This document shows positions 2,900 through 19,391 of a DNA stretch of 64,000 nt, in pieces; within the stretch, counting starts at the first letter, position 1; each line of letters starts with the position of its first letter. The stretch spans positions 192,001 to 256,000 of the forward strand of contig JANRKS010000005.1 in the NCBI GenBank assembly GCA_033763315.1, in the 5' to 3' direction. The notes beneath the pieces are model-generated. The model saw nothing but the letters and a program-made list of their open reading frames with translations. It was not told where the DNA came from and did not search any database. Source of the stretch: Deltaproteobacteria bacterium (lineage in GTDB: Bacteria > Myxococcota_A > Polyangia > Fen-1088). Made by a program: the position numbers and the translations under genes.

Positions 2900-2909
2900 G
2901 GTGCCTGCG

Positions 2910-3368: not shown

Positions 3369-3410
3369 GACCACGAAGCATGACAGATGCGGCGGGGTGT
3401 TTGTGGCGGC

Positions 3411-3830
3411 CTAAGCCATCGCCGTGAGCGTGCCACGGCGGGCGTCGTTCTCGTCGTCTTGGTCGTCGTCGAGAACGTCGTTGAGCTTCAGATGTTCTCG
3501 GAGCGCCAGGCGGTGCTTGCGGATGTGTTCCTGCAGCAAGCGTTTGGCCGTGCGGAAGGCGTCACGGGCGGCGACGTAGGGGTTTTCATGTGAGCCGTCA
3601 AAAGCATGGTCTTTGCCAACCACCAGATCGACGCCTAGCAAGTGCAGCTCAACGCGCACCTGGTAACTCACGCCCTTGGTCTGGTGGGTGTGTGGGCGCA
3701 AAATGGTGGTGCGGCACCAGGTGATACCTCGGTGCATGCGCAGGAGGCGATCGGCTTTGCGGCGGATGTTGGATTCCAACGTCGGCGAAGCGGGAACATC
3801 ACGGAAAACGATTTGAATGGCTTCAGTCAT
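3411..3830 (-). CDS. HPF/RaiA (sigma54 modulation) ribosome-associated protein
   Basis: IQIVFRDV..SPTLE...YQVRVELHL.G.DLVV...NPYVAARDAF fold pattern; GGAGG RBS before ATG 3830. Confidence 0.85.
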   Translation of the reverse strand: MTEAIQIVFRDVPASPTLESNIRRKADRLLRMHRGITWCRTTILRPHTHQTKGVSYQVRVELHLLGVDLVVGKDHAFDGSHENPYVAARDAFRTAKRLLQEHIRKHRLALREHLKLNDVLDDDQDDENDARRGTLTAMA

Positions 3831-3852
3831 TGGAACCTCCAACCGTTTGTGC

Positions 3853-3868
3853 TGCTACTTCTGTGCCA
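3853..3868 (-). promoter_or_regulatory. Putative sigma54 (-24/-12) promoter for HPF gene
   Basis: Minus strand TGGCACAGAAGTAGCA (GG-N10-GC) just upstream of the HPF RBS. Confidence 0.6.
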
Positions 3869-3982
3869 CGGCCTGGTGCGCACGACGCTGGGGCATCCGG
3901 GCCGCAAAGTGCAGGGAATGCCTGCGAGCCATGTGAATGTGCACGCCTTGCGCGAATGGCGGTGAAACGCTGCCACCACGCG

Positions 3983-3998
3983 TGGCACAGGACGTGCT
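3983..3998 (+). promoter_or_regulatory. Putative sigma54 promoter for USP/hybrid kinase genes
   Basis: TGGCACAGGACGTGCT (GG-N10-GC), 15 nt before ATG 4014; shares CGTGGCACAG with the divergent site. Confidence 0.6.
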
Positions 3999-4013
3999 GA
4001 GCCAACAGGTGCC

Positions 4014-5390
4014 ATGAACATACTTGTTGCAACGGATTTCACGAAGCCATCAGAGCACGCGGTTCAACTGGCGGCCGCTTTGGCGAAACGCTTGGGTGAT
4101 GGCTTGATCATCGCGTACGCGCACGAGCCGTCGACGGTTACATCGCCGGATTTCGCCGTTGACGTGGAAGCCTTAGAAGCGGCGGTGGTGCAAAAGGCCG
4201 AGGCAGGTCTCAAGCAGCTGGCGCGAGATTTGGTGGCCAACGGCGTGTCTGTGCAAACGCGTGTGGTGCGTGGGGCTGTGGTCGATAGCCTTGTGAAACT
4301 GGGTCACGACGAACAGGCTCGTTTCATTGTGGCTGGCACACACGCGCGTGGCACTGTGGGGCGGTTGTTGTTGGGCAGCGTCGCAGAGCGATTGGTGTTG
4401 CAGGCCGACCGACCCGTGTTGGTGGCGCGCGGCAGTGGCGACGAAGGGCTTCGCGCTTGGGCCGTGGGTGAGCGCCCCTTGCACGTGGCGGTGGCCGTGG
4501 ATCTCAGTGTGGCGTCCAAGGTGGGCGTGGAATGGATTCGGCAACTGCGGGCCGCGATGCCGTGTGATGTGACGTTCTTGCATTTTTATTGGCCGCCCGA
4601 GCAGTTTGCGCGGCTGGGCATCAGCACCGAAGCCGCTTTGGACGCCGCCGATCCTGTGACCGTGGCTGTGATTGAAAAGGAGCTGCGCGCGTTCGTGGGT
4701 GAATTGCCTGGGTCGGGGCGCGTGGCGTTTAAGATCGAGAGCAATTGGGGCGAGCTCGGCAGCCACTTGGCGTCAGCGGCCAGCGACGTCGATGCAGATT
4801 TGCTGGTGATGGGCGTGCACCAACGGCGCGGCGCCAAGCGTTTGTTTTTGGGCTCCACCGTTGCCCCCACCTTGCATGCCGCCATTGTGCCCGTGCTGGC
4901 TGTGTCGCGTGTTGATGAGGTGGCCGAGCGGACGCAGATCCCCACCATCTCGCAAGTGTTGGTGGCCACGGATCTGTCGAACTTAAGCGGCGGCGCTGTG
5001 CCCTATGCTTACAGCTTGGTTGAACGCGGCGGCGTGGTTCATTTGCTGCACGTGGCGGATCGCAACGACAAGCACAGTGTGTGGGATTTCTCGTTGAGCA
5101 AGGGCAAAGGCCTGCCGCTGCCCGTGGCTGCGGAGATCGAGGCAGCGCTGCGGGCGCTTGTGCCCGACGGTGCGGATCGACGTGACATTCGCACGCAGGT
5201 GCACGTTGTGGAAGGCGGCCGCGTGAGCACCCTCATCTTGCAGCATGCGGGCCGGTTAGGCGTGAACGCCATTTGCGTCGGCTCGCACGGTGCGGGTGGG
5301 TTGGGTAAAGTGTTGGTGGGTTCCGTCGCCCAGCAAGTGCTCGAGGGCGCCACGGTGCCTGTGTTTGTTGTGCGCGGCTTGCGCGCGTAG
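4014..5390 (+). CDS. Universal stress protein with three USP domains
   Basis: Three ILVATDF/VAVAVDL/VLVATDL starts and three G.H...LGS(V/T) motifs. Confidence 0.92.
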   Translation: MNILVATDFTKPSEHAVQLAAALAKRLGDGLIIAYAHEPSTVTSPDFAVDVEALEAAVVQKAEAGLKQLARDLVANGVSVQTRVVRGAVVDSLVKLGHDEQARFIVAGTHARGTVGRLLLGSVAERLVLQADRPVLVARGSGDEGLRAWAVGERPLHVAVAVDLSVASKVGVEWIRQLRAAMPCDVTFLHFYWPPEQFARLGISTEAALDAADPVTVAVIEKELRAFVGELPGSGRVAFKIESNWGELGSHLASAASDVDADLLVMGVHQRRGAKRLFLGSTVAPTLHAAIVPVLAVSRVDEVAERTQIPTISQVLVATDLSNLSGGAVPYAYSLVERGGVVHLLHVADRNDKHSVWDFSLSKGKGLPLPVAAEIEAALRALVPDGADRRDIRTQVHVVEGGRVSTLILQHAGRLGVNAICVGSHGAGGLGKVLVGSVAQQVLEGATVPVFVVRGLRA

Positions 5391-5435
5391 ACGCCTTCGC
5401 TTTACACCGCCAGCGTCGTCGCTCATTGTTGGGGC

Positions 5436-6857
5436 ATGACGCCGCTGGTTTTGATCGTCGATGATGATGAGGCACTGGCTGACAACCTCGCGGAGATAGT
5501 CGAGACGCTGCCGTGTGCGCCTCGCACGGTCTCGAACGGACATGAGGCTTTGGCCGTGGCTGCGGCGGGTGATGTGGCCGTGGCGTTGGTTGATGTGAGG
5601 TTGCCTGACGGCGGCGGCAGTGAGCTGGCGCGACGCTTGCGCCATGAGGTGCCGCTGGTGCAGGTCATCATGATCACGGGCGATGCGACGGTTGAAAGCG
5701 CCATTGCGGCCGTGGGTGATGGCGCGTTCGCGTTTGTGCTTAAGCCATTCGATGTGCCGCGCTTGCTCGACACCGTGAAACAGGCGTTGGCGCGGGCCAC
5801 TTTGTTGCGAGAGCGCGCGCGTTTGCAGCTTGAATTGGAGCGCAGCGAACGGCGGCACCGTGAGGTTGTGGAGGCGGTGCCTGCGTTTGTGCTGGGGTTG
5901 GACGCGCAGGGGCGGATCGTGCTGTGGAACCGGCGGCTTGAGGAGATCACCGGGTTTTCTCGCGACGTGATGTTGGGGCGCGACGGGCGGCAATTTGTGG
6001 GGGAGGGGCCCACGGCCATCCCCACGTCCGCAGGATCGGAAGTGCTGGTTCGCTGGGAGCGCGCGGCGGCAGAACACGATAACCCTGTGACCTACGCCGT
6101 GGGTATAGACGTAACCCGGGAACAAGAGATGGCGCGGCGAACGTTGCGGGCCGAGCGGCTTGCGGCCGTGGGCACTTTGGCCGCGGGATTGGCGCACGAG
6201 ATTCGCAATCCGTTGAACGCCGCGACCTTGCAGCTGCAGCTGTTGACGCGTCGGTTGGACCGGGGGGACAGCTCGGCCGAAACCGTGCGATCAATTACCC
6301 AGGTTGTTCAAAGTGAGATTGAGCGCCTGGAGCGGTTGGTCAATGACTTCTTGGCTTTTGCGCGGCCGCACCCGCTGCAGGTGGCGTCGATGGACCTTCG
6401 TGAAGTGGTGGGAGCCGTCCTATCGTTCTTAGAACCCGAGGCCGAGCTGCGACACGTAAAGGTGGTGTGCGACACGGGCGAGCTTGTGCCGCCCGTGGAA
6501 GGGGATCGCGAACGGCTGCGCCAGGTGCTGCTTAACCTGGCTCGCAATGCCATAGAGGCCATGCCCGACGGTGGCGTTCTGACGGTGCGTGTGCACGCTT
6601 CCCGGGATGGCGTATCGCTTGAGGTGGAAGACACCGGGGTTGGCATCGAGAACGACTCCGCCATCTTCGATGCGTTCTACACAACCAAGCCCCAAGGCAC
6701 CGGCCTGGGCCTGAGTCTCGTCCACCGCATCATCGGCGACCACGGCGGCACCATCGCCGTAAAATCGCAACCTGGGAGTACCCGCTTCACTATCTGGCTG
6801 CCCCTCGCCGTCGTCTCTCCCCCCTCTCCCCGGCCTCGCCAGCCCGTGCCGCTATGA
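5436..6857 (+). CDS. Hybrid receiver-PAS-histidine kinase
   Basis: N-terminal REC (IVDDD, DVRLPD, KP), PAS-like segment, HisKA AHEIRNPL, HATPase NLARNA/DTGVG/GTGLGL. Confidence 0.92.
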   Translation: MTPLVLIVDDDEALADNLAEIVETLPCAPRTVSNGHEALAVAAAGDVAVALVDVRLPDGGGSELARRLRHEVPLVQVIMITGDATVESAIAAVGDGAFAFVLKPFDVPRLLDTVKQALARATLLRERARLQLELERSERRHREVVEAVPAFVLGLDAQGRIVLWNRRLEEITGFSRDVMLGRDGRQFVGEGPTAIPTSAGSEVLVRWERAAAEHDNPVTYAVGIDVTREQEMARRTLRAERLAAVGTLAAGLAHEIRNPLNAATLQLQLLTRRLDRGDSSAETVRSITQVVQSEIERLERLVNDFLAFARPHPLQVASMDLREVVGAVLSFLEPEAELRHVKVVCDTGELVPPVEGDRERLRQVLLNLARNAIEAMPDGGVLTVRVHASRDGVSLEVEDTGVGIENDSAIFDAFYTTKPQGTGLGLSLVHRIIGDHGGTIAVKSQPGSTRFTIWLPLAVVSPPSPRPRQPVPL

Positions 6858-6899
6858 GGCGTCCCCGTGCCGCTGTGAGGCGTCCCAGGTTGCGTTTTT
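6761..6899. repeat. REPIN-like inverted doublet: 17-bp arms (1 mismatch) around a 105-bp spacer
   Basis: AAAATCGCAACCTGGGA (6761-6777) versus TCCCAGGTTGCGTTTTT (6883-6899), directly upstream of the HUH nuclease. Confidence 0.75.
6843..6884 (+). repeat. 21-bp tandem duplication
   Basis: CCCGTGCCGCTATGAGGCGTC / CCCGTGCCGCTGTGAGGCGTC (1 mismatch), running into CCCAGGTT at 6884. Confidence 0.9.
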
Positions 6900-6945
6900 T
6901 GCGCTTTGGTCGCAACAAATCTCTGCGGCTCGCGATAACGGGAAT

Positions 6946-7857
6946 ATGACAATGCCTCGTCGGATCGTTCGCGGTTTCACCTATCTCATCACGCGTCGAT
7001 GCACTCAAAGAGAGTTTCTGCTTCGGCCGGGAGAGGAGACGAACAACGCCTTCATCTATTGTCTCGCGCTCGCGGCACAGCTATGCGGTATAGACATTCA
7101 CGCTTTCGTTGCGAGCAGCAATCACTACCATTCCGTCATCACTGATCGCGAAGGTCGCTTGCCTGAATTTCTTGAATATTTCCACAAGCTCATGGCGAAA
7201 CACCAGAACGCCTTGCTCGATCGCTCTGAGAATATGTGGAGCTCCGAACGGACGTCCGTTGTGCGATTGGTATCAACGGAGGATGCCTTGGCAAAGCTCG
7301 TTTACACGCTGACCAACCCTGTGAAGGATCAGTTGGTCGAGAAGGCACACCACTGGCCCGGCGCAATCTCCTATCACGCGTGCTTGCATGGCAAAGTACT
7401 TCGCGCGACAAAACCCAAACGCTTTTTTCGCGCTGGCGGTCATCTGAAACAGGAAGTGCAGCTCGTGTGTGTGCCTTTGCCTGGCTACGAGGACGACGTC
7501 GAAGGGTACCGTCGCAAGCTGGCGCAGGAAATCGAGGCTGTGGAGCTGGCTGCTGCGCAACAACGCGCAAGGGATGGCAGCCGTGTGATAGGCCGCAGAA
7601 CGATCCTTACACAACGTCCCACGGATCGGCCTTCGTCGCGGCCGCTGAAGAAAGGCTTCAAGCCACAAATTGCAGCGCAGGACCCAACGCTAAGGGACCA
7701 GGCTCTTCATGAGCTGCGGCAGTTTCGCTGCACCTACGAAGTTGCTCGCCGGCAGTGGCTGGTAGATAAGGCTCATGCACTGCCATTGGGCACTTGGTGG
7801 TTGGCCCGCTTCGCTGGAGCGAAGACGGAACCGGGCCCGCTTGTCAGCGACGGATGA
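6946..7857 (+). CDS. REP-associated tyrosine transposase-like (RAYT/Y1 HUH) nuclease with long C-terminal extension
   Basis: N-terminal TYLITRRC, HUH motif SNHYH, W in ENMW, catalytic YTLTNPVK..LV....WP like the RAYT YxxxNPxK motif. At 303 aa it is about twice the size of IS200 TnpA; no tnpB nearby. Confidence 0.85.
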   Translation: MTMPRRIVRGFTYLITRRCTQREFLLRPGEETNNAFIYCLALAAQLCGIDIHAFVASSNHYHSVITDREGRLPEFLEYFHKLMAKHQNALLDRSENMWSSERTSVVRLVSTEDALAKLVYTLTNPVKDQLVEKAHHWPGAISYHACLHGKVLRATKPKRFFRAGGHLKQEVQLVCVPLPGYEDDVEGYRRKLAQEIEAVELAAAQQRARDGSRVIGRRTILTQRPTDRPSSRPLKKGFKPQIAAQDPTLRDQALHELRQFRCTYEVARRQWLVDKAHALPLGTWWLARFAGAKTEPGPLVSDG

Positions 7858-7869
7858 TCTGGTTGCGGC

Positions 7870-8625
7870 TCAGGCCAGTCCAGTAGGGGCTGAAGCCGCC
7901 GGGAACACACAGTTTCGACCGGCCTGTTTCGCGCCGTAAAGCGCCTTGTCTGCGGCGGCTATGAGCGTCTCCGGCGTTAATTGACCGTTTTGCCATTGTG
8001 CAACGCCGAACGAGGCTGTAACGGCCAACGGGCCCACATCCGAGGTTACTGCGAGTGACGCCATTGCTGCGCGCAGGCGTTCCGCCCAGCGTACGGCGTC
8101 CTCGGCACCCGTGTGCGGCAGCAAGACAAGAAACTCCTCTCCACCAAAGCGCGCCACGAAGTCGCCTTTGCGCTTGTGGCGCTCCAATGCTTGCGCCACA
8201 AATTTCAGGACTTGGTCGCCGACAGGGTGTCCGTGTTGGTCATTGATCGTCTTGAAATGATCGAGGTCAACCATCACAAGTGAAAGCGGCGTCTTGTAGC
8301 GTGCGCTGCGGGCGATCTCCTTACCCAACTCGGCGTCAAGTGCCCTTCGATTCGCAACCTGGGTCAGTGAATCCGTCAGCGTTTGAAGTTTTAGTTGTTC
8401 GGATAGGGTTCGCAGCTCGGCGTTGCGGTCGGCGAGCATGTCTTCTCGCCGTCCAATCATCCAGCCAGCGACGGCCAAGAACAACATTCCTCCCGATGCC
8501 ATCACTGCGAAAAGCAACCTGGGATCGGGTGGTCCCCCGCGGACGAGCGTGTAAGCAAACATGCCCGCAGGCGCTAGCAAACCAACCACGGCTCCGACGA
8601 GCGCGAACTCTTGTGCGTATGTCAA
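7870..8625 (-). CDS. Membrane-anchored diguanylate cyclase (GGDEF)
   Basis: 2 N-terminal TM helices, DLDHFKTINDQHGH, I-site RKGD, active site GGEEF. Confidence 0.93.
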   Translation of the reverse strand: MTYAQEFALVGAVVGLLAPAGMFAYTLVRGGPPDPRLLFAVMASGGMLFLAVAGWMIGRREDMLADRNAELRTLSEQLKLQTLTDSLTQVANRRALDAELGKEIARSARYKTPLSLVMVDLDHFKTINDQHGHPVGDQVLKFVAQALERHKRKGDFVARFGGEEFLVLLPHTGAEDAVRWAERLRAAMASLAVTSDVGPLAVTASFGVAQWQNGQLTPETLIAAADKALYGAKQAGRNCVFPAASAPTGLA

Positions 8626-8642
8626 TGCGGCCTATTTACGAT

Positions 8643-10040
8643 TCAATCCGGTTTGTTGGCAGACACTGCGGGCGCGCCACTTTTCGGCGCCTCTTGGTAC
8701 TCGTGAAGTTTGTATTGCACCTTGCGCACCGAAATGCCCAAGACGTCCGCCGCCTTGCTGGTGGATCCCCCGGTAAGTTCGAGGGTTTTGCGAATGGCGT
8801 AGTTTTCGATCTCCTCCAATGTGGAACCTGGGATTTGAATTCCCCGGCTCTCTTTGGGACGTAAGTGAGGAGGCAGCTCAGACACGCCGACCCGGCGCCC
8901 GTTGCACATGACGACCGCCCTTTCGATCGTATTTTCCAGTTCGCGCACGTTGCCGGGCCATTGGTAGTTGGCGAGAAACTCTAAGGCATCGTCCGTAAAG
9001 CCTTCGATTGTACGATCGCCTACGCGTTCGTTCTCGGCGGCGTATTTACGCAGAAAGTACGAAGCCAGAAGCGGTACGTCCGAAGGGCGAGACCGCAGCG
9101 GTGGCATTTCCATATTGATGACATTGAGGCGGTAATAAAGGTCTTCTCTGAAACGCCCGGCAGCGACCTCGGCTTTCAAGTCCCTGTTGGTCGCCGCAAT
9201 CACCCGAACATCCACCCGCACTGTTTCGTTGCCACCCACTCGCTCAAACTCGTGCTCCTGAAGAAAGCGCAGCAACTTAACCTGGGTTGCAGGCGAGATT
9301 TCCCCAATCTCGTCTAGGAACAAGGTGCCCTTGTGGGCTTGCATGAACCTTCCATCACGTCGGCCGGCGGCTCCGGTGAACGATCCTCGCTCATGTCCGA
9401 ACAGCTCGCTTTCCAAAATTGTCTCGGCCAAAGCCGCACAGTGCAGCTTAACGAACGGGCCCGTCGCCCGGGGGCTGCGCTGGTGGATCGCGGCCGCAAT
9501 CAATTCTTTCCCAGTCCCAGATTCGCCCGTGATCAGGACCGAAGCGCGGGAAGTCGCAACCTGCGAAATCACTTTGAAAATCTCCTGCATGACGGGCGCG
9601 CTGCCGATGATGTTCTCGAACTTATAGCGTTCGGCCAGGCGAGCCTTAAGTTGCCCAGACTCCTTACGCAGGCGTAGATGTTCAAGCTCTCGGTTTAGGA
9701 CCAGCAACAGCTCGTTCATGTTGATTGGTTTGGTGAGGTAGTCCGCGGCGCCATTACGCATAGCTGTCACCGCCGTCTCGACGGCGCCGAAGGCAGTCAT
9801 CACCACAACAACGGCGTCTTCATCAGATTCGCGAACCCGCCGCAGGAGCTCAAGACCGTCCATGCCGGGCATCTTCAAGTCGGTGAGGACGAGGTCCGGC
9901 GTGAAGTCGGACATTTTGCCTAAGGCTTTGAAGCCGTCTGCCGCGGTTTCAACGGCGTAACCCTCCTCCTTAAGGAGCTCGAACAGCGCATTTCGGGCGT
10001 TGGCTTCATCGTCGACAACAAGGATTCTGGCGCGTTGCAT
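8643..10040 (-). CDS. Sigma54-dependent response regulator (NtrC/AtoC family)
   Basis: REC + AAA (GESGTGKE, GSFTGA, FLDEIGE, RFREDLYYRL, WPGNVREL) + Fis HTH. Confidence 0.95.
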   Translation of the reverse strand: MQRARILVVDDEANARNALFELLKEEGYAVETAADGFKALGKMSDFTPDLVLTDLKMPGMDGLELLRRVRESDEDAVVVVMTAFGAVETAVTAMRNGAADYLTKPINMNELLLVLNRELEHLRLRKESGQLKARLAERYKFENIIGSAPVMQEIFKVISQVATSRASVLITGESGTGKELIAAAIHQRSPRATGPFVKLHCAALAETILESELFGHERGSFTGAAGRRDGRFMQAHKGTLFLDEIGEISPATQVKLLRFLQEHEFERVGGNETVRVDVRVIAATNRDLKAEVAAGRFREDLYYRLNVINMEMPPLRSRPSDVPLLASYFLRKYAAENERVGDRTIEGFTDDALEFLANYQWPGNVRELENTIERAVVMCNGRRVGVSELPPHLRPKESRGIQIPGSTLEEIENYAIRKTLELTGGSTSKAADVLGISVRKVQYKLHEYQEAPKSGAPAVSANKPD

Positions 10041-10154
10041 GGGGGCTCTCCGTTCTTCCGCCCGGCGTTCGGGCTCCGAAAATCAACCTGGGTCGTATTC
10101 GCCCAACCGCTCGGCGCACAAATGGCGCGAGCCAATACGTTGGGCGCAAAAAAT

Positions 10155-10823
10155 TCACGTTTTGGCAAACGGCTTTGCGGCCGAGAAGTGGTAGTTCATG
10201 CGGTGATCCAGCGCCGCCAGTATCTTCTCAAGCCGCTGCGTGGGCCTACGGGTCTCGAGCAGACTCTGTTGTTCACGGAGTGATAGCACCGCTGAACAAG
10301 CCATCAGACTGGCGACGCGGGTCTCTATTGAGTCGGCTTTTGCGAGCCCGCTCAGGGCGGTGGTCGCGATCTCACACCCTGGATGGCGCCGCTTCAGTTC
10401 AATCAGGCGAAGCTGCGCCTCTAGAACTAGATTTTCTAGGTCCTCTGGTCGGTCAAGATCATCGGATAGCCCCTCAACACGTGCCAATCGAAACGGATCC
10501 TCGCGCAGGAATTGCCCCACAGTTACGCGACCTTGGGTCCACAATTCGGTTAACCACAGCCCGGTGTTATGCGGTTGAAGATGCAACACTTCCGCGAGGA
10601 CTCCTGTCGAGAACAATGGGGCTGCGGAGGGCTTCCCAGGTTGCTCATCGGAGCAACATATGGCGAGCAAGGGCTTACCTGTTGAGCGCCGCGCCTCCCG
10701 AACGGCACCGAACGATTTGAGGTTCGCCAACAACAACGTGCAACGCATGCCTGGAAAAAGCACGGTGCGCGCCAGCCCAACCACCGGGAGGATCTCGTCA
10801 ATGTTTTGGGTTGAGCTTTGCAT
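10155..10823 (-). CDS. LON peptidase substrate-binding (LON-N) domain protein
   Basis: LPVVGL..TVLFPG...L...TGVLAEV...QQSLLE....QRLE; no ATPase or protease domain. Confidence 0.75.
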   Translation of the reverse strand: MQSSTQNIDEILPVVGLARTVLFPGMRCTLLLANLKSFGAVREARRSTGKPLLAICCSDEQPGKPSAAPLFSTGVLAEVLHLQPHNTGLWLTELWTQGRVTVGQFLREDPFRLARVEGLSDDLDRPEDLENLVLEAQLRLIELKRRHPGCEIATTALSGLAKADSIETRVASLMACSAVLSLREQQSLLETRRPTQRLEKILAALDHRMNYHFSAAKPFAKT

Positions 10824-10863
10824 GTTGATCCCTTAACCGTGGCGTTCCCACTTGCACCACCAA

Positions 10864-10879
10864 AGCAAAAGCCGTGCCC
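10864..10879 (-). promoter_or_regulatory. Putative sigma54 promoter for LON-N gene
   Basis: Minus strand GGGCACGGCTTTTGCT, near-perfect match to TGGCACG-N4-TTGCW, 40 nt upstream of ATG 10823. Confidence 0.7.
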
Positions 10880-12460
10880 CTAAACTCTGACCGCACTTCC
10901 TCCCGCGAGACGGGCGACCTTATCGAGCGCCTCCGAGCTGATCCACTCGTGTCCCAGGTTGCAGGATCTGCTCAACTCATCACCACTCACATGTCCTGGG
11001 TGCTGGTGGGACCGACCCGGGTTGTTAAGTTGAAGCGACCGGTGCGGTTTGAGTTCGCTGACTTTTCGAGCTTGGCGAAGCGGAAGGCGGCATGTGAGGA
11101 GGAGGTTCGGCTCAACAGGCGGTTGGCTCCCTCTGTATACGAAGGAGTGGTGAGCGTCGGCTTCGTGGACGGCCAGGTGGCGCTGGGACCGTCCAGTGAC
11201 GTGATTGATTATGCCGTCGTCATGCGACGACTAGATGAGTCCGATGAGGCGTCGTATCTGCTCCGAACGGGAGGTCTGCAGATTCTGCACCTAGCTGCCT
11301 TGGCCGATTGTCTAGCGCGTTTCTACCGAAGTGCGGAGCGATGCGACGAAAGCGGCAATCCCGAGGTCGTCGGGCGGCTCATCGAGCGCAATTTCGCCGA
11401 GATCGAGCACTTGAAACTCGAAGGGATAACATCCTCCCAGGTTGCAAATCTAAAGGCATTCGCACAGACCCTGGTCATCAGACTACGCGACCGCCTTGGC
11501 CGCCGGCAGGCGGTGGGGGCCATCCGGGACGGTCACGGCGACCTAAGGCTTGAGCATGTGTTCTTCCCAGGTTCGAATGCAGCCCCCCTAGTTATAGACA
11601 CAGTGGAATATGAGCCTGCGTTTCGCAGGGGCGACGTCGCGCTAGACGCCGCGTTTTTCGCCATGGAGCTCCGTTCTTCAGGACGGCGGGACCTGGAAGC
11701 GGCCTTCTGGTCCCATTTTGCCCGCTCGATGTCGGACTACACCTTCTTCCCCCTCATCGACCTTTACGTCCTGTATCGGGCGGCCGTTCGGGCAAAGGTC
11801 GCGGCGCTGATGGCCCAATCTCCTGACACCCCCGGGGACGTGGCTCGTGCCAAACAGGCGGAATGCGAATCCCTGTGGCGGCTGGCCGAGAGTGCGGTGG
11901 CCGCGGGCGAGGAGGGAGGCGCCGTCGTTTGTGTTGGCGGGTTGGTGGGCGCCGGCAAAAGCGTTGTTGCAGAAAAATTGGTTCCCAGGTTGCGCGGCCC
12001 GGTCATCTCGTCCGATTACATGCGCAAGGGCTTGGCGGGTTTAAGCCCCACAGACCGCGCTTGCGACGCGTACTACGACGAGGCATTCAACCGCCGAACT
12101 TTGACAGCGCTACTTGCGGCGAGCCGCGACGTGCTGACGAGCGGGCGGGTCGTGATTGTAGACGCGACTTTCCGCCGCTCGTCGTGGCGCCAGGCCTTTG
12201 TTGCGCTTGCCGACGAGCACAAAGTGCCATTTGTCTTTATTGAGGCACGATGCCGAGAGGAAGTTCTCCGGGAACGCCTTCGTGAACGGCAGCGGACTCT
12301 TTCGGTCTCGGACGCTCGCGAATCGACTCTGTCCCAGGTTGCTGCCGAGTTCGAGCCGCTCACAGATCTAGCGGGGCGGCAGCGTTTCGAGGTCGACACC
12401 GAGCAGCCCGTCGGGCCGGCGCTTGACCGCATCGCCGCGAAAATACACGTCCCAGGTTGA
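10874..12460 (+). CDS. Bifunctional aminoglycoside-phosphotransferase-like / AAA_33 kinase (Rv2004c-like)
   Basis: THMSWV...VKLKRPVRFEFADFS, EVRLNRRLAP, DGHGDLRLEH, P-loop GLVGAGKS, SDAR. Start uncertain. Confidence 0.88.
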   Translation: MPLNSDRTSSRETGDLIERLRADPLVSQVAGSAQLITTHMSWVLVGPTRVVKLKRPVRFEFADFSSLAKRKAACEEEVRLNRRLAPSVYEGVVSVGFVDGQVALGPSSDVIDYAVVMRRLDESDEASYLLRTGGLQILHLAALADCLARFYRSAERCDESGNPEVVGRLIERNFAEIEHLKLEGITSSQVANLKAFAQTLVIRLRDRLGRRQAVGAIRDGHGDLRLEHVFFPGSNAAPLVIDTVEYEPAFRRGDVALDAAFFAMELRSSGRRDLEAAFWSHFARSMSDYTFFPLIDLYVLYRAAVRAKVAALMAQSPDTPGDVARAKQAECESLWRLAESAVAAGEEGGAVVCVGGLVGAGKSVVAEKLVPRLRGPVISSDYMRKGLAGLSPTDRACDAYYDEAFNRRTLTALLAASRDVLTSGRVVIVDATFRRSSWRQAFVALADEHKVPFVFIEARCREEVLRERLRERQRTLSVSDARESTLSQVAAEFEPLTDLAGRQRFEVDTEQPVGPALDRIAAKIHVPG

Positions 12461-12553
12461 TGAAGTGGCCTACGCCACAGGCTTCTGCGCATGTCCCAGG
12501 TTGCGTGAACGAGCTCTTTCCAAACGGCCGCATCTGGCATTTACTCTGGCGCC

Positions 12554-15091
12554 ATGTTCAGGAAGCGCAGTTTTGTCACGTTGTCGGTGGTCATGGCTTT
12601 AGAGCTGGGGGCCCCAGGGGCGGGCGCCCAGGAAGCCGATCTGCGGGGCGCGGCCCCGCCTCCGTCCGGCATTTGGCTCGAGCAACTCGATCTTTCGGGG
12701 ATGACGGCGGGCTTCGGCGAGCCGGTCCCCCGTGCCGCCGTCTCGGGCAACCCCATCAGCATTGGCGGCGTCGCGTTCACCCATGGTGTGGGCACCCACG
12801 CCGACGGCGAGATCACGTTCGAGCTCGATGGAAAGGCGGAGCGCTTCATGGCCGAGGTGGGCGTGGATGACGATCTCAGCTGCCTAGACTCAATGGGCGC
12901 TCCAAAGCTCGCTGCTGTGAAATTCAAGGTCTACGTTGACGGCAAGTTGGCCGCTGACAGCGGCGTGATGAAGCACGGCCAGGCCCCGAAGCGCCTCTCC
13001 GTTGACCTCAAGGGCAGAAAGAAACTGCGCCTCGAGCTCAAAAAAGAACCCGGAGCTCGCTTCAATCACGCAACCTGGGGCGGTGCCGCCATCACCTTGG
13101 GCGAAGGCGCGGCGACCCCTCGAGCCGTGGGCTCGAAAGCCACAGCCACAGCCCGCGCCTCTCTCTCGAGGGACGAAGCGGCGCTTCTTCGCAGCAAGAC
13201 CCCGACCAAGAACGTGTTCTTCTTGCAGTCACTTGACCTCACCAAGGCGCGCTTTGCCTCGCCCAAGAGCATCGCCGGGGGCAAAACGCCGGGGGGAACA
13301 CCTCTGCTGCTTGACGGTGAAACCTACCCGGCCGGCTTCTCGGTCGATGGTGACAGCGAAATTGTTCTCGATCTCGCCGGCGGTGCGAAACGTTTCGTGG
13401 CCCGGGTTGGCATCGACGGCGCCCGATCGTGCGAAAAAGTCATGAACGGGGGTGCCTCGCGTGCTGAGGTTTGGGCCGACGCGAAGAAGATCTTCGATTC
13501 GGGCACGATCCATGGCTACAACAAACCGATCGACATTTCCTTGGATGTCACGGGCGTAAAGACACTGCTCGTGGCCTCTCGCCTCGTCGAAGGCGCGTCC
13601 GTACCAACAACCTGGGCAGGTGCCGCGCTCATCCTCGACCCCGCAAAGAAGGCAACGCCCAAGCTTGTGCAGCTGCCTGAGCCGCCGCGTCCCGCCGTCG
13701 CGCGCTCGCGGCCCAACGAACTTGGGATTCACGGCCCCGGCATCACAGGTGGATCACCCGGCAAGCCGTTTTTGTTCCGCATCCCTGCCACGGGCAAAAA
13801 GCCGCTCAGCTACGCGGCCGCGGGGTTGCCGGCGGGCCTTGAACTCAACACGTCCACAGGCGTGATCGCCGGCAAGCCTGCGAAAGCCGGCTCCCACTTG
13901 GTCACGCTGACCGTTAAAGACTCGTTGGGCGCCGAAACCACCCGACCGTTTAAGATCGAAATCGGCAGCAACAAACTGGCCCTGACTCCACCCATGGGTT
14001 GGAACTCCTGGAACGTGTGGGGCTTGGACGTCAGCGACCAAAACATTCGCCGCGCCGCTGATTCGTTGATCACATCAGGCCTGGCCGATCACGGTTTCGC
14101 CTTCATCAACATCGACGACGCGTGGGAAGGCAAACGCAACGCAAAAGGCGAAATCGAGCCCAACGAAAAGTTTCCGAACATGGTGGCGCTCTCAGAATAC
14201 GTGCATGGCAAAGGCTTGAAGATGGGCATCTATTCATCACCCGGCCCCAAGACGTGCGGCATGTACGAAGGCAGTTATCGACACGAAAAGCAAGACGCGC
14301 AGACCTACGCAAAGTGGGGTGTCGATCTGTTGAAATACGATTGGTGCTCATACGGCGGCGTCGCGAAGGGCAGCAGCCGCGAAGAGCTGATGAAGCCTTA
14401 CATTCTCATGGGCAAAGCCCTGCGCAGCACCTCGCGCGATGTGGTTTACAGCCTGTGCCAGTACGGTATGGGCAACGTTTGGGAGTGGGGCCGCAAAGTG
14501 GGCGGCCACTACTGGCGCACCACGGGCGACATTGTGGACACGTGGAGCAGCGTCGATTCAATCGGCTTTGGGCAAGCGGGCAAAGACAGCTTCGCCGGCC
14601 CCGGCGGCTGGAACGATCCCGATATGTTGGTGCTGGGCAAAGTTGGCTGGAGCAAGAAGCTGCGCGACACGCGCTTAACGCCCGCAGAACAAGTGACGCA
14701 CATGACGTTGTGGAGTTTGCTCGCGTCGCCGCTTCTCATCGGCGCCGATCTCGATCAACTAGACCCATGGACGTTGGATCTGCTGACCAACGATGAAGTG
14801 ATCGCCGTCAATCAAGACGAATTGGGTCGCGCTGCCGCGCGTGTTGTGGATGACGCGGGCTCCGAGGTTTGGACACGCCCGTTGGCCGATGGAAGCTTGG
14901 CTGTGGGTGTTTTCAACCGCGGCCCCGTGGGCACGAACGTGAAAGTGGATCTGGGCAAGCTGGGGCGCGCCGGTAAACAGAACGTGCGTGATCTGTGGCA
15001 GCGCCAAGATCTGGGCGCGCGCGAAGGTGCTTTTGATGTTGACGTGATCTCTCACGGCGCCGTTTTATTCAAAGTTGCGGCTGCAAAATAA
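12554..15091 (+). CDS. Secreted GH27 alpha-galactosidase with two NPCBM domains and a He_PIG Ig domain
   Basis: Signal peptide; NPCBM (GVGTHA..VGVDD) x2; GLPAGL..GVIAG; TPPMGWNSWN, NIDDAW, LKYDWC, WRTTGD, WNDPDML. Confidence 0.92.
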   Translation: MFRKRSFVTLSVVMALELGAPGAGAQEADLRGAAPPPSGIWLEQLDLSGMTAGFGEPVPRAAVSGNPISIGGVAFTHGVGTHADGEITFELDGKAERFMAEVGVDDDLSCLDSMGAPKLAAVKFKVYVDGKLAADSGVMKHGQAPKRLSVDLKGRKKLRLELKKEPGARFNHATWGGAAITLGEGAATPRAVGSKATATARASLSRDEAALLRSKTPTKNVFFLQSLDLTKARFASPKSIAGGKTPGGTPLLLDGETYPAGFSVDGDSEIVLDLAGGAKRFVARVGIDGARSCEKVMNGGASRAEVWADAKKIFDSGTIHGYNKPIDISLDVTGVKTLLVASRLVEGASVPTTWAGAALILDPAKKATPKLVQLPEPPRPAVARSRPNELGIHGPGITGGSPGKPFLFRIPATGKKPLSYAAAGLPAGLELNTSTGVIAGKPAKAGSHLVTLTVKDSLGAETTRPFKIEIGSNKLALTPPMGWNSWNVWGLDVSDQNIRRAADSLITSGLADHGFAFINIDDAWEGKRNAKGEIEPNEKFPNMVALSEYVHGKGLKMGIYSSPGPKTCGMYEGSYRHEKQDAQTYAKWGVDLLKYDWCSYGGVAKGSSREELMKPYILMGKALRSTSRDVVYSLCQYGMGNVWEWGRKVGGHYWRTTGDIVDTWSSVDSIGFGQAGKDSFAGPGGWNDPDMLVLGKVGWSKKLRDTRLTPAEQVTHMTLWSLLASPLLIGADLDQLDPWTLDLLTNDEVIAVNQDELGRAAARVVDDAGSEVWTRPLADGSLAVGVFNRGPVGTNVKVDLGKLGRAGKQNVRDLWQRQDLGAREGAFDVDVISHGAVLFKVAAAK

Positions 15092-15877
15092 ATGTCTTAT
15101 CTGCCGTTTGATTGGTACGAAACGCCGCTTTACTACGACATTGTCTTCGATGAAGACACGCGTAAAGAAGTGGCGTTTCTTGAGGCTTTGCACAAACGCC
15201 ACGTGCGCAAACCCACGCACCGGCTGCTTGAGCCTGCGTGTGGCTCGGGGCGCTTGATGGCCACCTTGGCCAAGCGTGGCTTCACGGTCTATGGCTTTGA
15301 CGCCAGCGCCGGCATGTTGGCCTTTGCGCGCAAGCGCACGCAACGCCTTGGCAAGCGCGTGCACTTGTCACAGCAGAGCATGCAAAGCTTTGCTTACAAA
15401 CACAGCTTCGACATGGCGTTTTGCCTGGTCAGCACGTTTAAGTACCTGCTGACCGAGGCAGACGCTGTAAACCACTTGCGTCGCGTGGCCGAGGTATTGC
15501 GGCCCGGTGGCATCTACGCGCTGGGCTTTCATCTTACGCACTACAACCGCACCAGCGCCGAGCGCGAACGTTGGGTGCAAAGCCGAGGCAAGCTCACCGT
15601 CACGTGCAACATCCAGATCTGGCCGCCCGATCGCCGCACGCGCCTTGAACGCGCGCGCTCGCGTTTGTTGGTCTCCGGCTTAGCGGAGGGTGATCGCAAA
15701 TACGAAACAAACTGGCACTTTCGCACGTACAGCAAGGCGCAGTTCTTCGATTTGCTGGCCAAGGTGCCTGAGCTCGAACACATCGACACGCACGACTTTT
15801 TGTACGATCCCGATTACCACCCGGTGTTTGGGGAAGAGCGCGCGGATGTGATTGCGGTGCTGCGCAAACGCGGCTAG
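15092..15877 (+). CDS. Class I SAM-dependent methyltransferase
   Basis: LLEPACGSGR motif I, GFDAS, LRPGG. Confidence 0.9.
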   Translation: MSYLPFDWYETPLYYDIVFDEDTRKEVAFLEALHKRHVRKPTHRLLEPACGSGRLMATLAKRGFTVYGFDASAGMLAFARKRTQRLGKRVHLSQQSMQSFAYKHSFDMAFCLVSTFKYLLTEADAVNHLRRVAEVLRPGGIYALGFHLTHYNRTSAERERWVQSRGKLTVTCNIQIWPPDRRTRLERARSRLLVSGLAEGDRKYETNWHFRTYSKAQFFDLLAKVPELEHIDTHDFLYDPDYHPVFGEERADVIAVLRKRG

Positions 15878-15994
15878 CGCACGAAGCCACGCGCTGCAGA
15901 ACCGCCCCTGGCCGTTCGCGCAAGCCTTTCATCGCCTCAACACCCGAGCGCAGATGGTGCGGTGAAATCAACCTGGGACAAGCGCTGGTACCCT

Positions 15995-16010
15995 GGGAAC
16001 AGACATTGCA
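15995..16010 (+). promoter_or_regulatory. Putative sigma54 promoter for second USP
   Basis: GGGAACAGACATTGCA (GG-N10-GC, TTGC) 37 nt before ATG 16048. Confidence 0.5.
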
Positions 16011-16047
16011 AATAGCTTCGCACCAGAGCTCAGGTGGGCTCGCCGCC

Positions 16048-16482
16048 ATGGAAAAACACAAGCGCAAGCCGATCATAGCGGCGGTCGACGGGTCGCCGCA
16101 TTCGCACAAGGTTGCCGACTTTGCCAGCCGCCTGGCGCATGCCTTCGAAACGCGGTTGGCCCTCTTGCATGTCGTCGAGCCGCTGCCTCACCACATGGTT
16201 TCGTCGTTTGGAATGGCAGCCAACCAGTGGCTGCAGACGCAACTGCGAGAGGGGCAAGCCGTGTTAGACGAGCTGTGCCAAGAGTTGCAGCTTGCAGACG
16301 TGGACAAGATCTTGTCGTCGGGCCCTGTGCCAGAAACGATTTGTGGGGAAGCCGAAGAAGCCAACGCGGAGATGATTGTGCTCGGCGCCCACGGCCATGG
16401 GCCTGTGCCGCGTATCATGCTTGGTTCTGTGGGCGATCGGGTGGCGTCGCTTGCCAGCCGCACAGTGACGATCGTGCGGTGA
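16048..16482 (+). CDS. Universal stress protein (single domain)
   Basis: IIAAVDGS...LLHV...IVLGAHG...LGSV; start re-called at ATG 16048. Confidence 0.92.
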   Translation: MEKHKRKPIIAAVDGSPHSHKVADFASRLAHAFETRLALLHVVEPLPHHMVSSFGMAANQWLQTQLREGQAVLDELCQELQLADVDKILSSGPVPETICGEAEEANAEMIVLGAHGHGPVPRIMLGSVGDRVASLASRTVTIVR

Positions 16483-16484
16483 CT

Positions 16485-16904
16485 TCAGCTATGCGCGGGC
16501 CGCTGCTTTATCAACGCTGCATCGGCCCCAGTCTCCAGCACCTGCTGCAAGGCCGCGAGCAGCGCCTTGATGTCCACGGGCTTGGGCAGGACGGCGTTGG
16601 CCCCCGCTTCGTGGGCCTGCGCGATCGTCTGCGGATCGGTAAACGCGCTCACAACCAACGATGGAAAGCCATAGCCGAGCTGGTGCAACGCCGTGATGAG
16701 CTCGGGGCCACTTTTTCCCGGCAACCGGAAATCTGTGATCAGCGCGTGAAATTCATCAACAGGCACCCGGGCCAAGGCGGCTTCGGCCGATTCGGCCACG
16801 GCGGCCAGATAGCCTTCGCCGTCTAGAATTTCAGCCAAATTTTCCGCCAGTTCGGTGTGGTCGTCGACGACCAAGATGCGCCGGTGGCTGTTATTCGGGA
16901 CCAT
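16485..16904 (-). CDS. Single-domain response regulator
   Basis: ILVVDD, TDFRLPG, SAF, PKP. Confidence 0.9.
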   Translation of the reverse strand: MVPNNSHRRILVVDDHTELAENLAEILDGEGYLAAVAESAEAALARVPVDEFHALITDFRLPGKSGPELITALHQLGYGFPSLVVSAFTDPQTIAQAHEAGANAVLPKPVDIKALLAALQQVLETGADAALIKQRPAHS

Positions 16905-16914
16905 GAGAAGGCGC

Positions 16915-18090
16915 CTATACTAGCACGACAAACGTGGCCCCCGACGTCTCGTGCGACGTTCGCGGCGCCAGGCCAATCGTGCCTTCGTGAGCCTCAAGGA
17001 TGCGGCGGCACAATGACAGCCCAATGCCTGTGCCCTTGGCTTTGGTGGTGAAAAGCGGCTCGAAGATCCGATGAGCGACGTCCAAGGCCACCCCGGGCCC
17101 CTCATCGTGGACGCGGAACTCCGTCTTGTTGCCCACCGCCTTGGCGCTGACAGTGATGGTGCCCTGGCCACCCATGGCTTGCGAGGCGTTGATGAAAAGA
17201 TTGGAGAACACCTGCGCCATCTGGCCTGCATCGACGCTCACGTGCAGTCCAGGGTCAATGTCTTGCGCGACTTTGATGGTCTCCGGCAGGTTGGCCGCGC
17301 TCACGCCCAGTTCAACCACAGTTGTGGCGAGGGTGCTTTGCCGCGAGGGCGGCCGGTTGCGCGCCAGCTCGAGCAAGTCAGTGATCGTTTTGTTCGCACG
17401 CCGCACCTCACTGGCGATGCGGTCGATGTGTTTAACAACTTTCGGATCGCCCGCTCCGTCCTGCAATCCCAAGCGTTGGCGCAGCAAAAACACGGAGCTT
17501 TCAACCACCCCTAGGGGGTTACGAAGTTCATGCCCGATGCCGGTGGCGAACTGCCCAATCGTTGCCAATCGTTCGGCAGCGCGGTTCGCCGACAGCAACG
17601 ATTCGCGATACGTCTCAAGCATGATCGCCAGCTCCAAATCCAATATCTTTTCAAGCGCGGTCGCGGTTCTGTGGCTGCGCGGTGGGTCGCCGATCAGGTT
17701 TTCATAGACCAAGCTCAACAAGCGCACGCGGATGCGGTTGATCGCCGTGAACATGTACTCTTGTGGCAGCGCGATACGCACATGCATGCGGCCGATGCGG
17801 GCGCGCTTGTCAAAGTAGCTTTCGTCGTGAGGCCCTTTCATGAGCTCACGCAACCAATCCTTGAGCGTGTTCTTGAGCCGGTTGACCTGGTCCGCGCCGC
17901 CGGTGATGGCTTTGCGCGCGTCTTCGTGGGTCAAAATGGCTTCATAAAAGTCATCAACGATCGGGGTCACGTGGGGTTCAACCACGGGGAAAAAATCCAA
18001 CAACAACGCGCTGTCGTTGTCGTTAAAGCGAACGTAGTCCTTCAAACGTTCAAAGAAGCTAAGCTGTGGGGGGACCTGGGCTTCGTCCAT
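16915..18090 (-). CDS. Globin-coupled histidine kinase (AfGcHK-like O2 sensor)
   Basis: Protoglobin domain (FYEAIL distal Tyr; IGRMHVRIALPQ proximal His) fused directly to HisKA GHELRNPL and HATPase; resembles, from recall, Anaeromyxobacter AfGcHK. Confidence 0.92.
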   Translation of the reverse strand: MDEAQVPPQLSFFERLKDYVRFNDNDSALLLDFFPVVEPHVTPIVDDFYEAILTHEDARKAITGGADQVNRLKNTLKDWLRELMKGPHDESYFDKRARIGRMHVRIALPQEYMFTAINRIRVRLLSLVYENLIGDPPRSHRTATALEKILDLELAIMLETYRESLLSANRAAERLATIGQFATGIGHELRNPLGVVESSVFLLRQRLGLQDGAGDPKVVKHIDRIASEVRRANKTITDLLELARNRPPSRQSTLATTVVELGVSAANLPETIKVAQDIDPGLHVSVDAGQMAQVFSNLFINASQAMGGQGTITVSAKAVGNKTEFRVHDEGPGVALDVAHRIFEPLFTTKAKGTGIGLSLCRRILEAHEGTIGLAPRTSHETSGATFVVLV

Positions 18091-18108
18091 GGTGGCTTTT
18101 TAACAACT

Positions 18109-18124
18109 AGGCGTACATCTTGCA
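18109..18124 (+). promoter_or_regulatory. Putative sigma54 promoter for lipoprotein-cytochrome c pair
   Basis: AGGCGTACATCTTGCA (GG-N10-GC, TTGC) 36 nt before ATG 18161. Confidence 0.5.
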
Positions 18125-18160
18125 GTTGGATGGCTTCACAATGCAACAGGTGGTGAATCG

Positions 18161-19332: not shown

Positions 19333-19391
19333 TCGCGCGCACGCGATAGCGTGTTACGATCCCGCGTTCGGTTTGAACGCGGTGTTCGCCT

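Follow-up and report, generated by a model that had tools for sequence, protein, structure and literature searches.

The window, i.e. the whole 64-kb stretch of DNA analysed, is located at positions 192001–256000 of contig C5 in the source genome G000 (7.63 Mb, 40 contigs). Five adjacent genes at 6946–12460 of the window deviate from the codon usage of the genome (hereafter the dip), and the first of these encodes a RAYT/TIRYT-like HUH tyrosine (Y1) nuclease, around which copies of a short motif form a halo. The nuclease gene (6946–7857, + strand, 303 aa), identified by an NCBIfam match, invariant motifs and fold, is atypical with a GC content at third codon positions (GC3) of 0.622. On the minus strand it is followed by genes for a GGDEF diguanylate cyclase (7870–8625; two motif copies, one CTAG), a sigma-54-dependent response regulator (8643–10040; two 8-nt partial motif copies), hereafter the sigma-54 activator, and a fast-evolving protein with a LON substrate-binding domain (LON_N, 10155–10823; three CTA-Leu/CTAG sites at 10421–10439), all with atypical codon use. 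The fifth and most atypical gene, also fast-evolving, encodes an AAA_33 kinase-like protein (AAA33, 10874–12460, + strand, 528 aa), and contains six motif copies and six CTAG sites. On the left, the dip is flanked by a hybrid histidine kinase gene (REC-PAS-HisKA-HATPase, 5436–6857, + strand) with two motif copies and typical composition except perhaps in the last 33 codons, and on the right by a gene for a GH27 alpha-galactosidase with NPCBM domains (12554–15091, + strand), of typical composition, with two motif copies and one CTAG. The genes other than the nuclease were assigned by Pfam.

Codon usage of the five genes was flattened. The preliminary description had named CTA, ATA, AGG and TCT by eye as marks of flatter usage, and all four were indeed raised in 6946–12460 when compared to the genome as relative synonymous frequencies (CTA 0.117 vs 0.033, ATA 0.153 vs 0.050, AGG 0.073 vs 0.041, TCT 0.121 vs 0.082). 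Codons losing share were GGC, CGC, GTG, ATC and ACG, and those gaining were CTA, ATA, AGG, ACT and GGA. The genome-referenced Codon Adaptation Index (CAI), ranked among 2966 long open reading frames (ORFs) of G000, was 0.619 for the nuclease gene (6th percentile), 0.617 for GGDEF (5th), 0.648 for the sigma-54 activator (12th), 0.599 for LON_N (3rd) and 0.589 for AAA33 (2nd). Use of six rare codons in these genes ranked at the 88th–99th percentile (sigma-54 activator 96th, AAA33 99th). The CAI of the flanking genes was ordinary (kinase 30th percentile, GH27 65th). At four-fold degenerate sites, A and T were more frequent in the dip than in the genome (A 0.158 vs 0.107, T 0.186 vs 0.156). The compositional shift proposed in the preliminary description is thus clear in codon use, with CAI percentiles of 2–12, and is only moderately expressed in other measures: bulk GC was mildly low (0.587 in 7001–12000, 12th percentile of genome windows), and the tetranucleotide distance was at the 93rd–95th percentile.

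A cluster of 12 CTAG sites (8574–12887, with first nucleotides at 8574–12884 and three sites at 10421, 10427 and 10436) accompanies the dip, as had been noticed beforehand. The 64-kb window contains 41 CTAG sites in total, which gives a density of 2.8/kb within the cluster against 0.49/kb elsewhere in the window (29 sites in about 59.7 kb) and 0.515/kb genome-wide (3934 sites in 7.63 Mb). Only 16 of 7461 overlapping 5-kb genome windows held at least 12 sites, 8001–13000 among them. Each of the 12 sites consists of a CTA-Leu codon in frame and the first letter of a codon that starts with G, and the number within 6946–12460 (11) was close to that expected from local CTA, TAG and TA counts (8.6). 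The cluster is therefore a by-product of the codon flattening, and a role of CTAG as a functional motif or nick site was ruled out on the same two grounds. Orthologs are available for 11 of the sites, and at eight of these every sister genome compared uses another Leu codon (CTG, TTG, CTC or CTT). Other 5-kb windows of G000 with 10–13 CTAG sites, on contigs C4, C6, C12, C16, C20, C31, C35 and C40, mostly had a low GC of 0.55–0.58 and a high tetranucleotide distance, and look like ordinary acquired islands.

The edges of the dip were located at gene ends, at about 6759–6945 and 12461–12553, and not inside the kinase and GH27 genes where the preliminary description had placed them. GC3 falls between the kinase stop codon (6857) and the next gene, and rises again at the spacer between AAA33 and GH27. 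In a likelihood change-point analysis, atypical usage entered the kinase gene by 33 codons only (edge about 6759, P=0.02) and had no measurable reach into GH27 (22 codons, P=0.37). Only the motif halo and a single CTAG (12884) enter both flanking genes. Both edges coincide with junctions of lineage-specific insertions, i.e. those of the nuclease gene and of GH27. At the left edge, a 21-nt tandem duplication (20/21 identical, 6843–6884) spans the kinase stop codon (6855–6857) and ends where the motif copy at 6884 starts; it may have been left behind by the insertion.

The nuclease protein matched the NCBIfam model REP_Tyr_transpos (NF047646, REP-associated tyrosine transposase, where REP stands for repetitive extragenic palindrome) with an E-value of 9.5e-12 and 45 bits, under the 80-bit cut-off. 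It had no Pfam match even at E≤10, and for the Pfam family Y1_Tnp three of four family members gave no match at E≤10 while the fourth scored 16.7 bits against a cut-off of 23. The catalytic motifs were well conserved: in the HUH motif N59-H60-Y-H62 (NHYH), N59, H60 and H62 were invariant in 21 aligned homologs, as were Y120, N124 and P125 in the Y-x3-N-P motif Y120-T-L-T-N124-P125. The AlphaFold2 model (mean pLDDT 89.2) has long helices in the C-terminal half, and its best Foldseek match was 4er8_A, the Escherichia coli REP-associated tyrosine transposase (E-value 2.1e-6, target TM-score 0.65). Next came the TnpA proteins of ISDra2 and IS608, and fold coverage was limited to the N-terminal ca. 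150 residues. In residues 140–303, the Pfam search found no domain, including the helix-turn-helix-like Bac_DnaA_C, HTH_23 and HTH_28. The earlier suggestion of a nicking enzyme near the shift is consistent with the invariant motifs and modelled fold, and such an enzyme is plausibly encoded at the locus. According to the available portions of the published classifications, the catalytic tyrosine in Y-x3-N-P is the signature of class 2 TnpA-Y1 (Quentin 2018, PMC6006769), and the nuclease falls in this class, where subclasses 2.1 (TIRYT) or 2.3, both long and without REPs, are nearest to it (PMC6006769, PMC3733652).

Of the 89 genomes of the bacterial family, 48 had members of the nuclease family, frequently more than one, with three matches in G000, none in the sister genome G001, two in the sister genome G002 and up to 25 in G019. 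The closest homolog outside G000 was 52% identical, and a scan of further genome contigs returned 13 loci with 39–66% identity in the best aligned segment. Within the genus, GC3 of the nuclease genes was 0.55–0.62 against a host value of about 0.70; in 23 loci of other genera it tracked the host, with a mean difference of -0.037.

The motif halo is composed of 16 exact copies of the 9-mer CCCAGGTTG at 6298–15977 on both strands, when 0.63 were expected from 100 shuffles, none of which reached 16. On the plus strand the copies start at 6298, 6884, 10635, 10953, 11436, 11984, 12333, 12451 and 12495, and on the minus strand at 6768, 8355, 8515, 10084, 13071, 13608 and 15969. The majority are situated in coding sequence. 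In 11 of the 16 copies the match extends to the 10-mer CCCAGGTTGC, which occurs 46 times in the genome, the remainder outside this locus being scattered singly. The genome has 142 copies of the 9-mer, of which 29 lie in two stretches of together about 16 kb. The presumed cognate motif of the nuclease is 10–11 nt long, TCCCAGGTTGC, and non-palindromic; the only hairpin-like arrangement was an inverted pair at 6750–6777 and 6883–6910 (79% complementary, 105 nt apart), which includes the copies at 6768 and 6884. Five further CCCAGGTTG copies were identified at C5:182018–189556, in DNA of typical composition 2.4–10 kb before the window start and 9–17 kb upstream of the nuclease gene, and no further nuclease homolog was found near them.

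Gene order was compared with G001 and G002, and a further genome, G005, was added for the sigma-54 activator and for codons at motif sites. Outside the genes described above, the window contains a triple USP gene (4014–5390, + strand) to the left, and genes for a methyltransferase (15092–15877, + strand), a USP (16006–16482, + strand) and a globin-coupled kinase (16915–18090, - strand) to the right, all assigned by Pfam. In G001 the order is DUF2721, HPF, USP, kinase, sigma-54 activator, LON_N, AAA33, methyltransferase, USP and globin kinase, and in G002 it is GGDEF, sigma-54 activator, LON_N, AAA33, methyltransferase and globin kinase. The affected genes thus belong with the USP and kinase cluster on either side, as had been supposed, since the same gene order is found in two sister genomes. 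Neither the nuclease gene nor GH27 was found at the syntenic place in G001 or G002. The nuclease gene is a lineage-specific insertion, in G000 between kinase and GGDEF, and so is GH27, between AAA33 and the methyltransferase gene, despite its typical composition. Partial paralogs of the GH27/NPCBM gene were observed on contigs C32 and C19.

Four of the five dip genes (GGDEF, sigma-54 activator, LON_N and AAA33) have syntenic orthologs in G001 and/or G002 with genus-typical protein identity. The GGDEF ortholog in G002 adjoins the sigma-54 activator gene and is 64% identical. For the sigma-54 activator, amino-acid identities were 89% (G000–G001), 87% (G000–G002), 89% (G001–G002) and 75% (G000–G005), the G005 ortholog likewise occupying the corresponding position. 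In the same order of the first three pairs, identities were 46, 48 and 50% for LON_N, 52, 47 and 54% for AAA33, and, outside the dip, 75, 78 and 75% for the methyltransferase and 73, 72 and 77% for the globin kinase. G000 was joined with G001 and G002 in the phylogenetic trees of both the sigma-54 activator, which is atypical, and the kinase, which is typical in composition. The protein branch of G000 was 0.071 for the sigma-54 activator against root-to-tip paths of 0.072 and 0.12 in its congeners, and 0.21 for the kinase against 0.16 and 0.25.

In the sister genomes the orthologs have ordinary codon usage. On the G000 scale, CAI values of AAA33, LON_N and sigma-54 activator from G002 were 0.713, 0.665 and 0.745, with zero, zero and one CTAG, respectively; on the own scale of G002 (241 ORFs, 400 kb) their percentiles were 62, 22 and 89, with a fourth value of 37. 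The three orthologs of G001 had a GC3 of 0.82–0.86 and no CTAG. Host GC3 is about 0.82 in G001, and about 0.70 in G000 and G002. Syntenic DNA contained four CTAG in 18 kb of G001 and six in 13.6 kb of G002, and no motif copies in either. It follows that the dip concerns the G000 lineage alone and affects genes inherited vertically.

Orthologous codons in G001, G002 and G005 differed at all 14 intragenic sites with motifs or partial motifs. In the sigma-54 activator the partial copies involve synonymous changes (e.g. ACA CAG GTC to ACC CAG GTT), and at other sites the amino acids were changed, as from Ala-Glu-Val to Thr-Gln-Val in the kinase and from Thr-Gly-Val-Ala to Thr-Gln-Val-Ala in GGDEF. 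Three of the AAA33 copies are read in frame as Ser-Gln-Val-Ala, and one supplies the stop codon. These alignments show that the motif copies arose in place by substitution in orthologous codons, synonymously where the protein is conserved and with amino-acid change elsewhere.

A replicate of the locus was identified on contig C38 of the same genome, where 13 copies of CCCAGGTTG surround a nuclease paralog of 59% identity (halo at 7139–13171 of G000:C38:15000-34999, locus L014). Here the genes for DUF6691, CDP-OH transferase, an unknown ORF, the paralog and a TPR protein were at CAI percentiles 0–12, with 10 CTAG in 6.6 kb, and the adjoining biotin-synthase-like gene (BioB) was back at the 93rd percentile. 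The flanking order TPR-BioB-PlsY-CA is ancestral. The TPR gene has six copies of the G000 motif in G000, and its ortholog in G002 has three copies of another 10-mer, TACCCTTGGT. Five of the 11 genomic copies of TACCCTTGGT in G002 are within 5.2 kb of the RAYT-like gene of G002 itself (292–1260, GC3 0.554), which lies next to a halo at 1592–6770 of locus L078 (G002:C171) with TACCCTTGGT in the CA and TPR genes. The G000 motif set and the TACCCTTGGT set are each missing from the other genomes. This reciprocal pattern in the TPR gene is the strongest evidence for an in-place origin of the motif copies and for their dependence on which nuclease gene lies nearby. A reading of the motif as a sigma-54 promoter or enhancer site was ruled out, since no such regulator is found at the second halo, and it is the nuclease paralog that the motif tracks.

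Three motif copies of the C38 halo share 14 of 15 nt of ACCCAGGTTGATTTY, translated as Thr-Gln-Val-Asp-Phe, and two of the three align as small in-frame insertions relative to G001 and G002. Some copies may accordingly have arrived by insertion and not by substitution. The third paralog of G000, on contig C8, is 40% identical and has its own motif, CAACCCCGGTG. It is located at 18089–19060 of locus L062 (G000:C8:171000-190999), with CAACCCCGGTG copies in 16649–18015, six of them in the 350-nt upstream spacer and four in two upstream ORFs. In other genera (loci L053, L054, L058, L060 and L064), dense non-coding arrays of 11–26 copies of clade-specific 9–12-mers were observed, with a spacing of 15–60 nt; these are oppositely oriented on the two sides of the nuclease homolog, and resemble iteron arrays rather than REP hairpins.

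Divergence on a shorter time scale was obtained from X2, contigs (not reads) of a relative diverged by about 6% and possibly of mixed strains, which cover 2196–20000 of the window in seven long pieces. The values refer to all nucleotide differences per piece (1275 listed in all) and not to per-site dS. Runs X1, X3 and X4 contributed short contig pieces only (X1 and X3 partly identical to the window, X1 perhaps being the sample of origin), and no conclusion was drawn from them or from stretches without coverage. In the left flank, 309 of 4520 positions differed (6.8%), and in the right flanks 160 of 3565 (4.5%) and 233 of 3458 (6.7%). Within the dip, divergence was 2.8% for the nuclease gene (6807–7863, 30/1057), less than half of that in the left flank, 5.3% for the sigma-54 activator (47/883), and 10.6% and 8.0% for the two LON_N/AAA33 pieces (168/1591 and 74/930). 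Divergence inside the dip is thus not uniformly raised, and the high values are those of LON_N and AAA33, on which constraint is weak in all three species. That the nuclease gene is so little diverged suggests either recent exchange of the segment or constraint at synonymous sites. In the X2 strain the nuclease gene and GH27 occupy their places and most of GGDEF is missing, with 7863 joined to 8570 and 706 nt replaced by 51 other letters, so the locus is structurally polymorphic. By the differences per piece, the dip is older than the split of G000 and X2.

Our preferred explanation, held tentatively and somewhat short of probable, is that the dip represents a lineage-specific, in-place change at synonymous sites, a locus-bound shift of the substitution regime tied to the HUH element. 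The element would impose a local evolutionary regime on its surroundings, in which the weak genome-wide forces on synonymous sites (codon preference, GC3, avoidance of CTA/CTAG) would be less effective or overridden. A second, directional change took place in situ at the same locus, as copies of the putative cognate motif were written into the coding sequence of the neighbours. Candidate causes would be recurrent sweeps at the locus or a drive for new motif copies, reduced recombination together with heteroduplex repair around a structurally polymorphic locus, or repair of nicks at a rate close to normal and with a different spectrum. An in-place regime is favoured because the halo arose in place anyway, the dip recurs on C38, and the nuclease genes of the genus share a low GC3. 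The shift and its limits, its restriction to one lineage, the descent of the genes by vertical inheritance, the in-place origin of the motif copies and one replicate locus are observed; that the nuclease is the cause, what kind of regime it would impose, and how motif seeding would be coupled to codon relaxation are inferred.

Several observations weigh against this explanation. The link between halo and dip is not general, since a dip is seen at the two largest halos (16 and 13 copies) but at neither of the small ones: the two ORFs upstream of the C8 paralog, with two motif copies each, are near typical (CAI percentiles 24–34), and the G002 halo genes CA, PlsY, BioB and TPR are at percentiles 22–69. 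In the 23 loci of other genomes, neighbours within 1.5 kb averaged only -0.028 in GC3 (59 ORFs from crude calls, 66% negative). The codon deviations of the two G000 loci correlate with r=0.68, when triples of other low-CAI ORFs gave a mean of 0.49 and 3.5–7% of them reached 0.68, so the similarity is only marginally above that of generic atypical genes. Edges at gene ends and insertion junctions are explained no less well by replacement of a block, or by some property of transcription units, than by a process that depends on distance, and the halo is wider than the dip (copies at 6298, at 13071–15977, and the five 9-mers 9–17 kb upstream). No strand asymmetry at four-fold sites was consistent between plus- and minus-strand genes or between C5 and C38; no specific lesion is thereby indicated, and strand-specific damage was ruled out. 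Finally, synonymous sites are saturated between the three species, with codon identity at conserved residues differing from chance by -0.05 to 0.12, and the time and direction of the change are therefore unreadable from them.

The main rival, unlikely yet to be taken seriously, is introgression, by which the nuclease gene would have spread among related lineages through homologous recombination together with donor alleles of the flanking genes, the dip being the unameliorated composition of an unsampled congener with flatter codon use and no avoidance of CTA/CTAG. The sharp edges suit such an event, as do the genus-typical protein distances of the dip genes, expected from a congeneric donor, and the wide range of GC3 in the genus. 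The 2.8% divergence of the nuclease gene from X2 against 6.8% in the left flank is what a recent exchange confined to this segment would produce, and both dip-bearing loci of G000 have one motif type in common. However, no donor is known: a scan of metagenome contigs for closer relatives of AAA33 returned 37 loci, all only 29–41% identical, and the nearest nuclease outside G000 is no closer than the 52% given above. Two separate imports from low-GC3 congeners, into C5 and C38, would be required, and random crossovers would seldom coincide with gene ends at each of the three edges examined by eye or test. Moreover, introgression leaves the halo unexplained, as it would still need an in-place origin in the donor and continues outside the atypical block.

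A bolder form of in-place change, which we consider rather unlikely, is that the HUH nuclease itself would rewrite the DNA surrounding the gene that encodes it. Within a few kb, near-cognate sequences would be converted to the exact motif via short templated patches after nicking, and the accompanying repair synthesis, free of the usual biases, would flatten codon usage. If true, the size of the halo and the depth of the codon dip would grow with the residence time of the element, which would constitute a self-seeding drive editing vertically inherited host genes.

The earlier reading of the locus combined in-situ change with an elevated mutation rate, and the two parts fared differently. Change in place, as opposed to an island, was supported by synteny and trees. 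Hypermutation, in which nicking by the HUH enzyme persistently raises the local mutation rate through error-prone repair synthesis and so erodes codon bias, is improbable. A HUH/Y1 nuclease gene with intact-looking catalytic motifs is present in the region, many substitutions made motif copies, and LON_N/AAA33 exceed the flanks (4.5–6.8%) in divergence from X2. This excess is, however, expected from weak constraint, as these proteins are only 50–54% identical even between G001 and G002, and neither the sigma-54 activator in the middle of the dip nor the nuclease gene exceeds the flanks in the same comparison. The protein branches of G000 are no longer inside the dip than outside. As neither branch lengths nor X2 divergence are uniformly raised, ongoing hypermutation is thus unsupported, and by population-genetic theory a higher rate alone should leave equilibrium codon usage unmoved.

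Relaxed selection unrelated to the nuclease has a slim chance of being correct. The five genes would be weakly expressed or dispensable in the lineage, their codon bias would have decayed, and the halo would be co-located incidentally. Such decay agrees with a shift that follows gene and transcription-unit borders and with a deviation that is generic flattening, and the deletion of most of GGDEF in X2 implies that at least one of the genes is dispensable. Nevertheless, the sigma-54 activator, 87–89% identical to its orthologs and with an ordinary branch, is under normal purifying selection, the same pattern occurs at the paralogous locus on C38, and the CAI values, in the lowest 2–12% of the genome, are below those of ordinary weakly biased genes.

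A classical horizontally acquired island of foreign genes is very improbable: the atypical codon use, the CTAG-rich stretch with its mostly low-GC counterparts elsewhere in G000 and the transposase-like gene at one edge would suggest it, but syntenic orthologs of normal codon usage, lacking the motif and nearly free of CTAG, refute it for four of the five genes, leaving it true only for the nuclease gene itself, while no tRNA gene was found in 1–22000 of the window and only the conserved AAA+ core of sigma-54 activators was matched in plasmid and phage collections (best cover 11% of 5601 nt).

Local atypical codon blocks are familiar from genomic islands and the amelioration of acquired DNA, reportedly treated by Lawrence and Ochman in 1997. 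The block described here resembles an island in its sharp edges and transposase-like neighbour, and differs in consisting mainly of syntenic orthologs with genus-typical protein divergence.

Among characterized systems, the following comparisons rely on the accessible portions of the cited papers. The locus is reminiscent of REPtrons, i.e. RAYT/TnpA-REP genes with REPs or bacterial interspersed mosaic elements (BIMEs) such as that of E. coli TnpA-REP (PDB 4er8; Bertels & Rainey 2011, PMC3116915; Ton-Hoang 2012, PMC3333891; Messing 2012, PMC3479197), in that a HUH/Y1 gene with Y-x3-NP is found amid a presumed cognate short sequence in both orientations. The motif is, however, 10–11 nt long and without a hairpin, occurring in relatives as direct-repeat arrays. 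It is local and not spread over intergenic regions genome-wide, and its copies are in the coding sequence of neighbours, by substitution and not insertion. REPtron nucleases are typically present as one vertically inherited copy per genome, whereas this family is multi-copy (three in G000, up to 25 in a relative), and the present nuclease scores under the NCBIfam cut-off.

Likeness is also found with TIRYTs of TIRtrons (Di Nocera 2013, PMC3733652), which correspond to TnpA-Y1 subclass 2.1 and are described as prevalent in delta-proteobacteria (Quentin 2018, PMC6006769): these are RAYT-like, without REP hairpins, longer than the core, and have the motif NH[YF]H (PMC3733652, PMC6006769). Subclass 2.3 shares NHYH, a length of about 325 aa and several copies per genome (PMC6006769). 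TIRYT genes are flanked by inverted repeats; in relatives of the present nuclease (L054, L058, L064), arrays of opposite orientation flank the gene, and in the window there is one copy just upstream (6884) in addition to dispersed copies. Differences from the TIRYTs, to the extent that the available text describes them, are the lack of a helix-turn-helix or other Pfam domain in the C-terminal half of the nuclease, a motif off the published GGGGWSAS consensus, and tandem arrays of 10–26 copies in relatives in place of single terminal inverted repeats. Neither substitution-made motif copies in neighbouring genes nor a codon shift is described in the available portions of PMC3733652 and PMC6006769.

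Cognate repeats of tyrosine transposases within ordinary protein-coding genes, and translated, are also known as intragenic REPs (Di Nocera 2013, PMC3733652). According to the portion available, these are whole palindromic units inserted anywhere in the genome and adding 20–30 residues, whereas the copies reported here mostly involve no length change and occur near the nuclease gene only. A TnpA-REP-linked diversification of prochlorosin genes was proposed by Laurenceau et al. (bioRxiv 10.1101/2020.03.09.984088), where a later note of the authors, in the part available, states that there is no strong evidence for or against causation. In both cases the idea is that an enzyme of the TnpA-REP type alters the evolution of adjoining genes; as far as the preprint was accessible, it concerns gene-family expansion, in contrast to the single-copy, housekeeping-type neighbours altered here at the nucleotide level. 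A non-exhaustive literature search, with supplements left aside and sources partly accessible, returned no published account of local substitution-made halos in coding sequence or of a codon dip around such genes.

Atypical codons beside a transposase-like gene are as a rule taken for a sign of horizontal transfer. At this locus the atypical genes are vertical, and composition-based island callers would mislabel them. Ordinary genes next to a RAYT/TIRYT-type element can thus bear its imprint at the nucleotide level, in the form of copies of its own motif, including amino-acid changes, and, in two of the four halos examined, of reduced codon bias. Should the nuclease be the cause, the locus would represent a rare case in which a bacterial enzyme shapes how the sequences in a delimited stretch of the chromosome evolve, and would provide a testable activity for ‘domesticated’ Y1 transposases that have been without a function.

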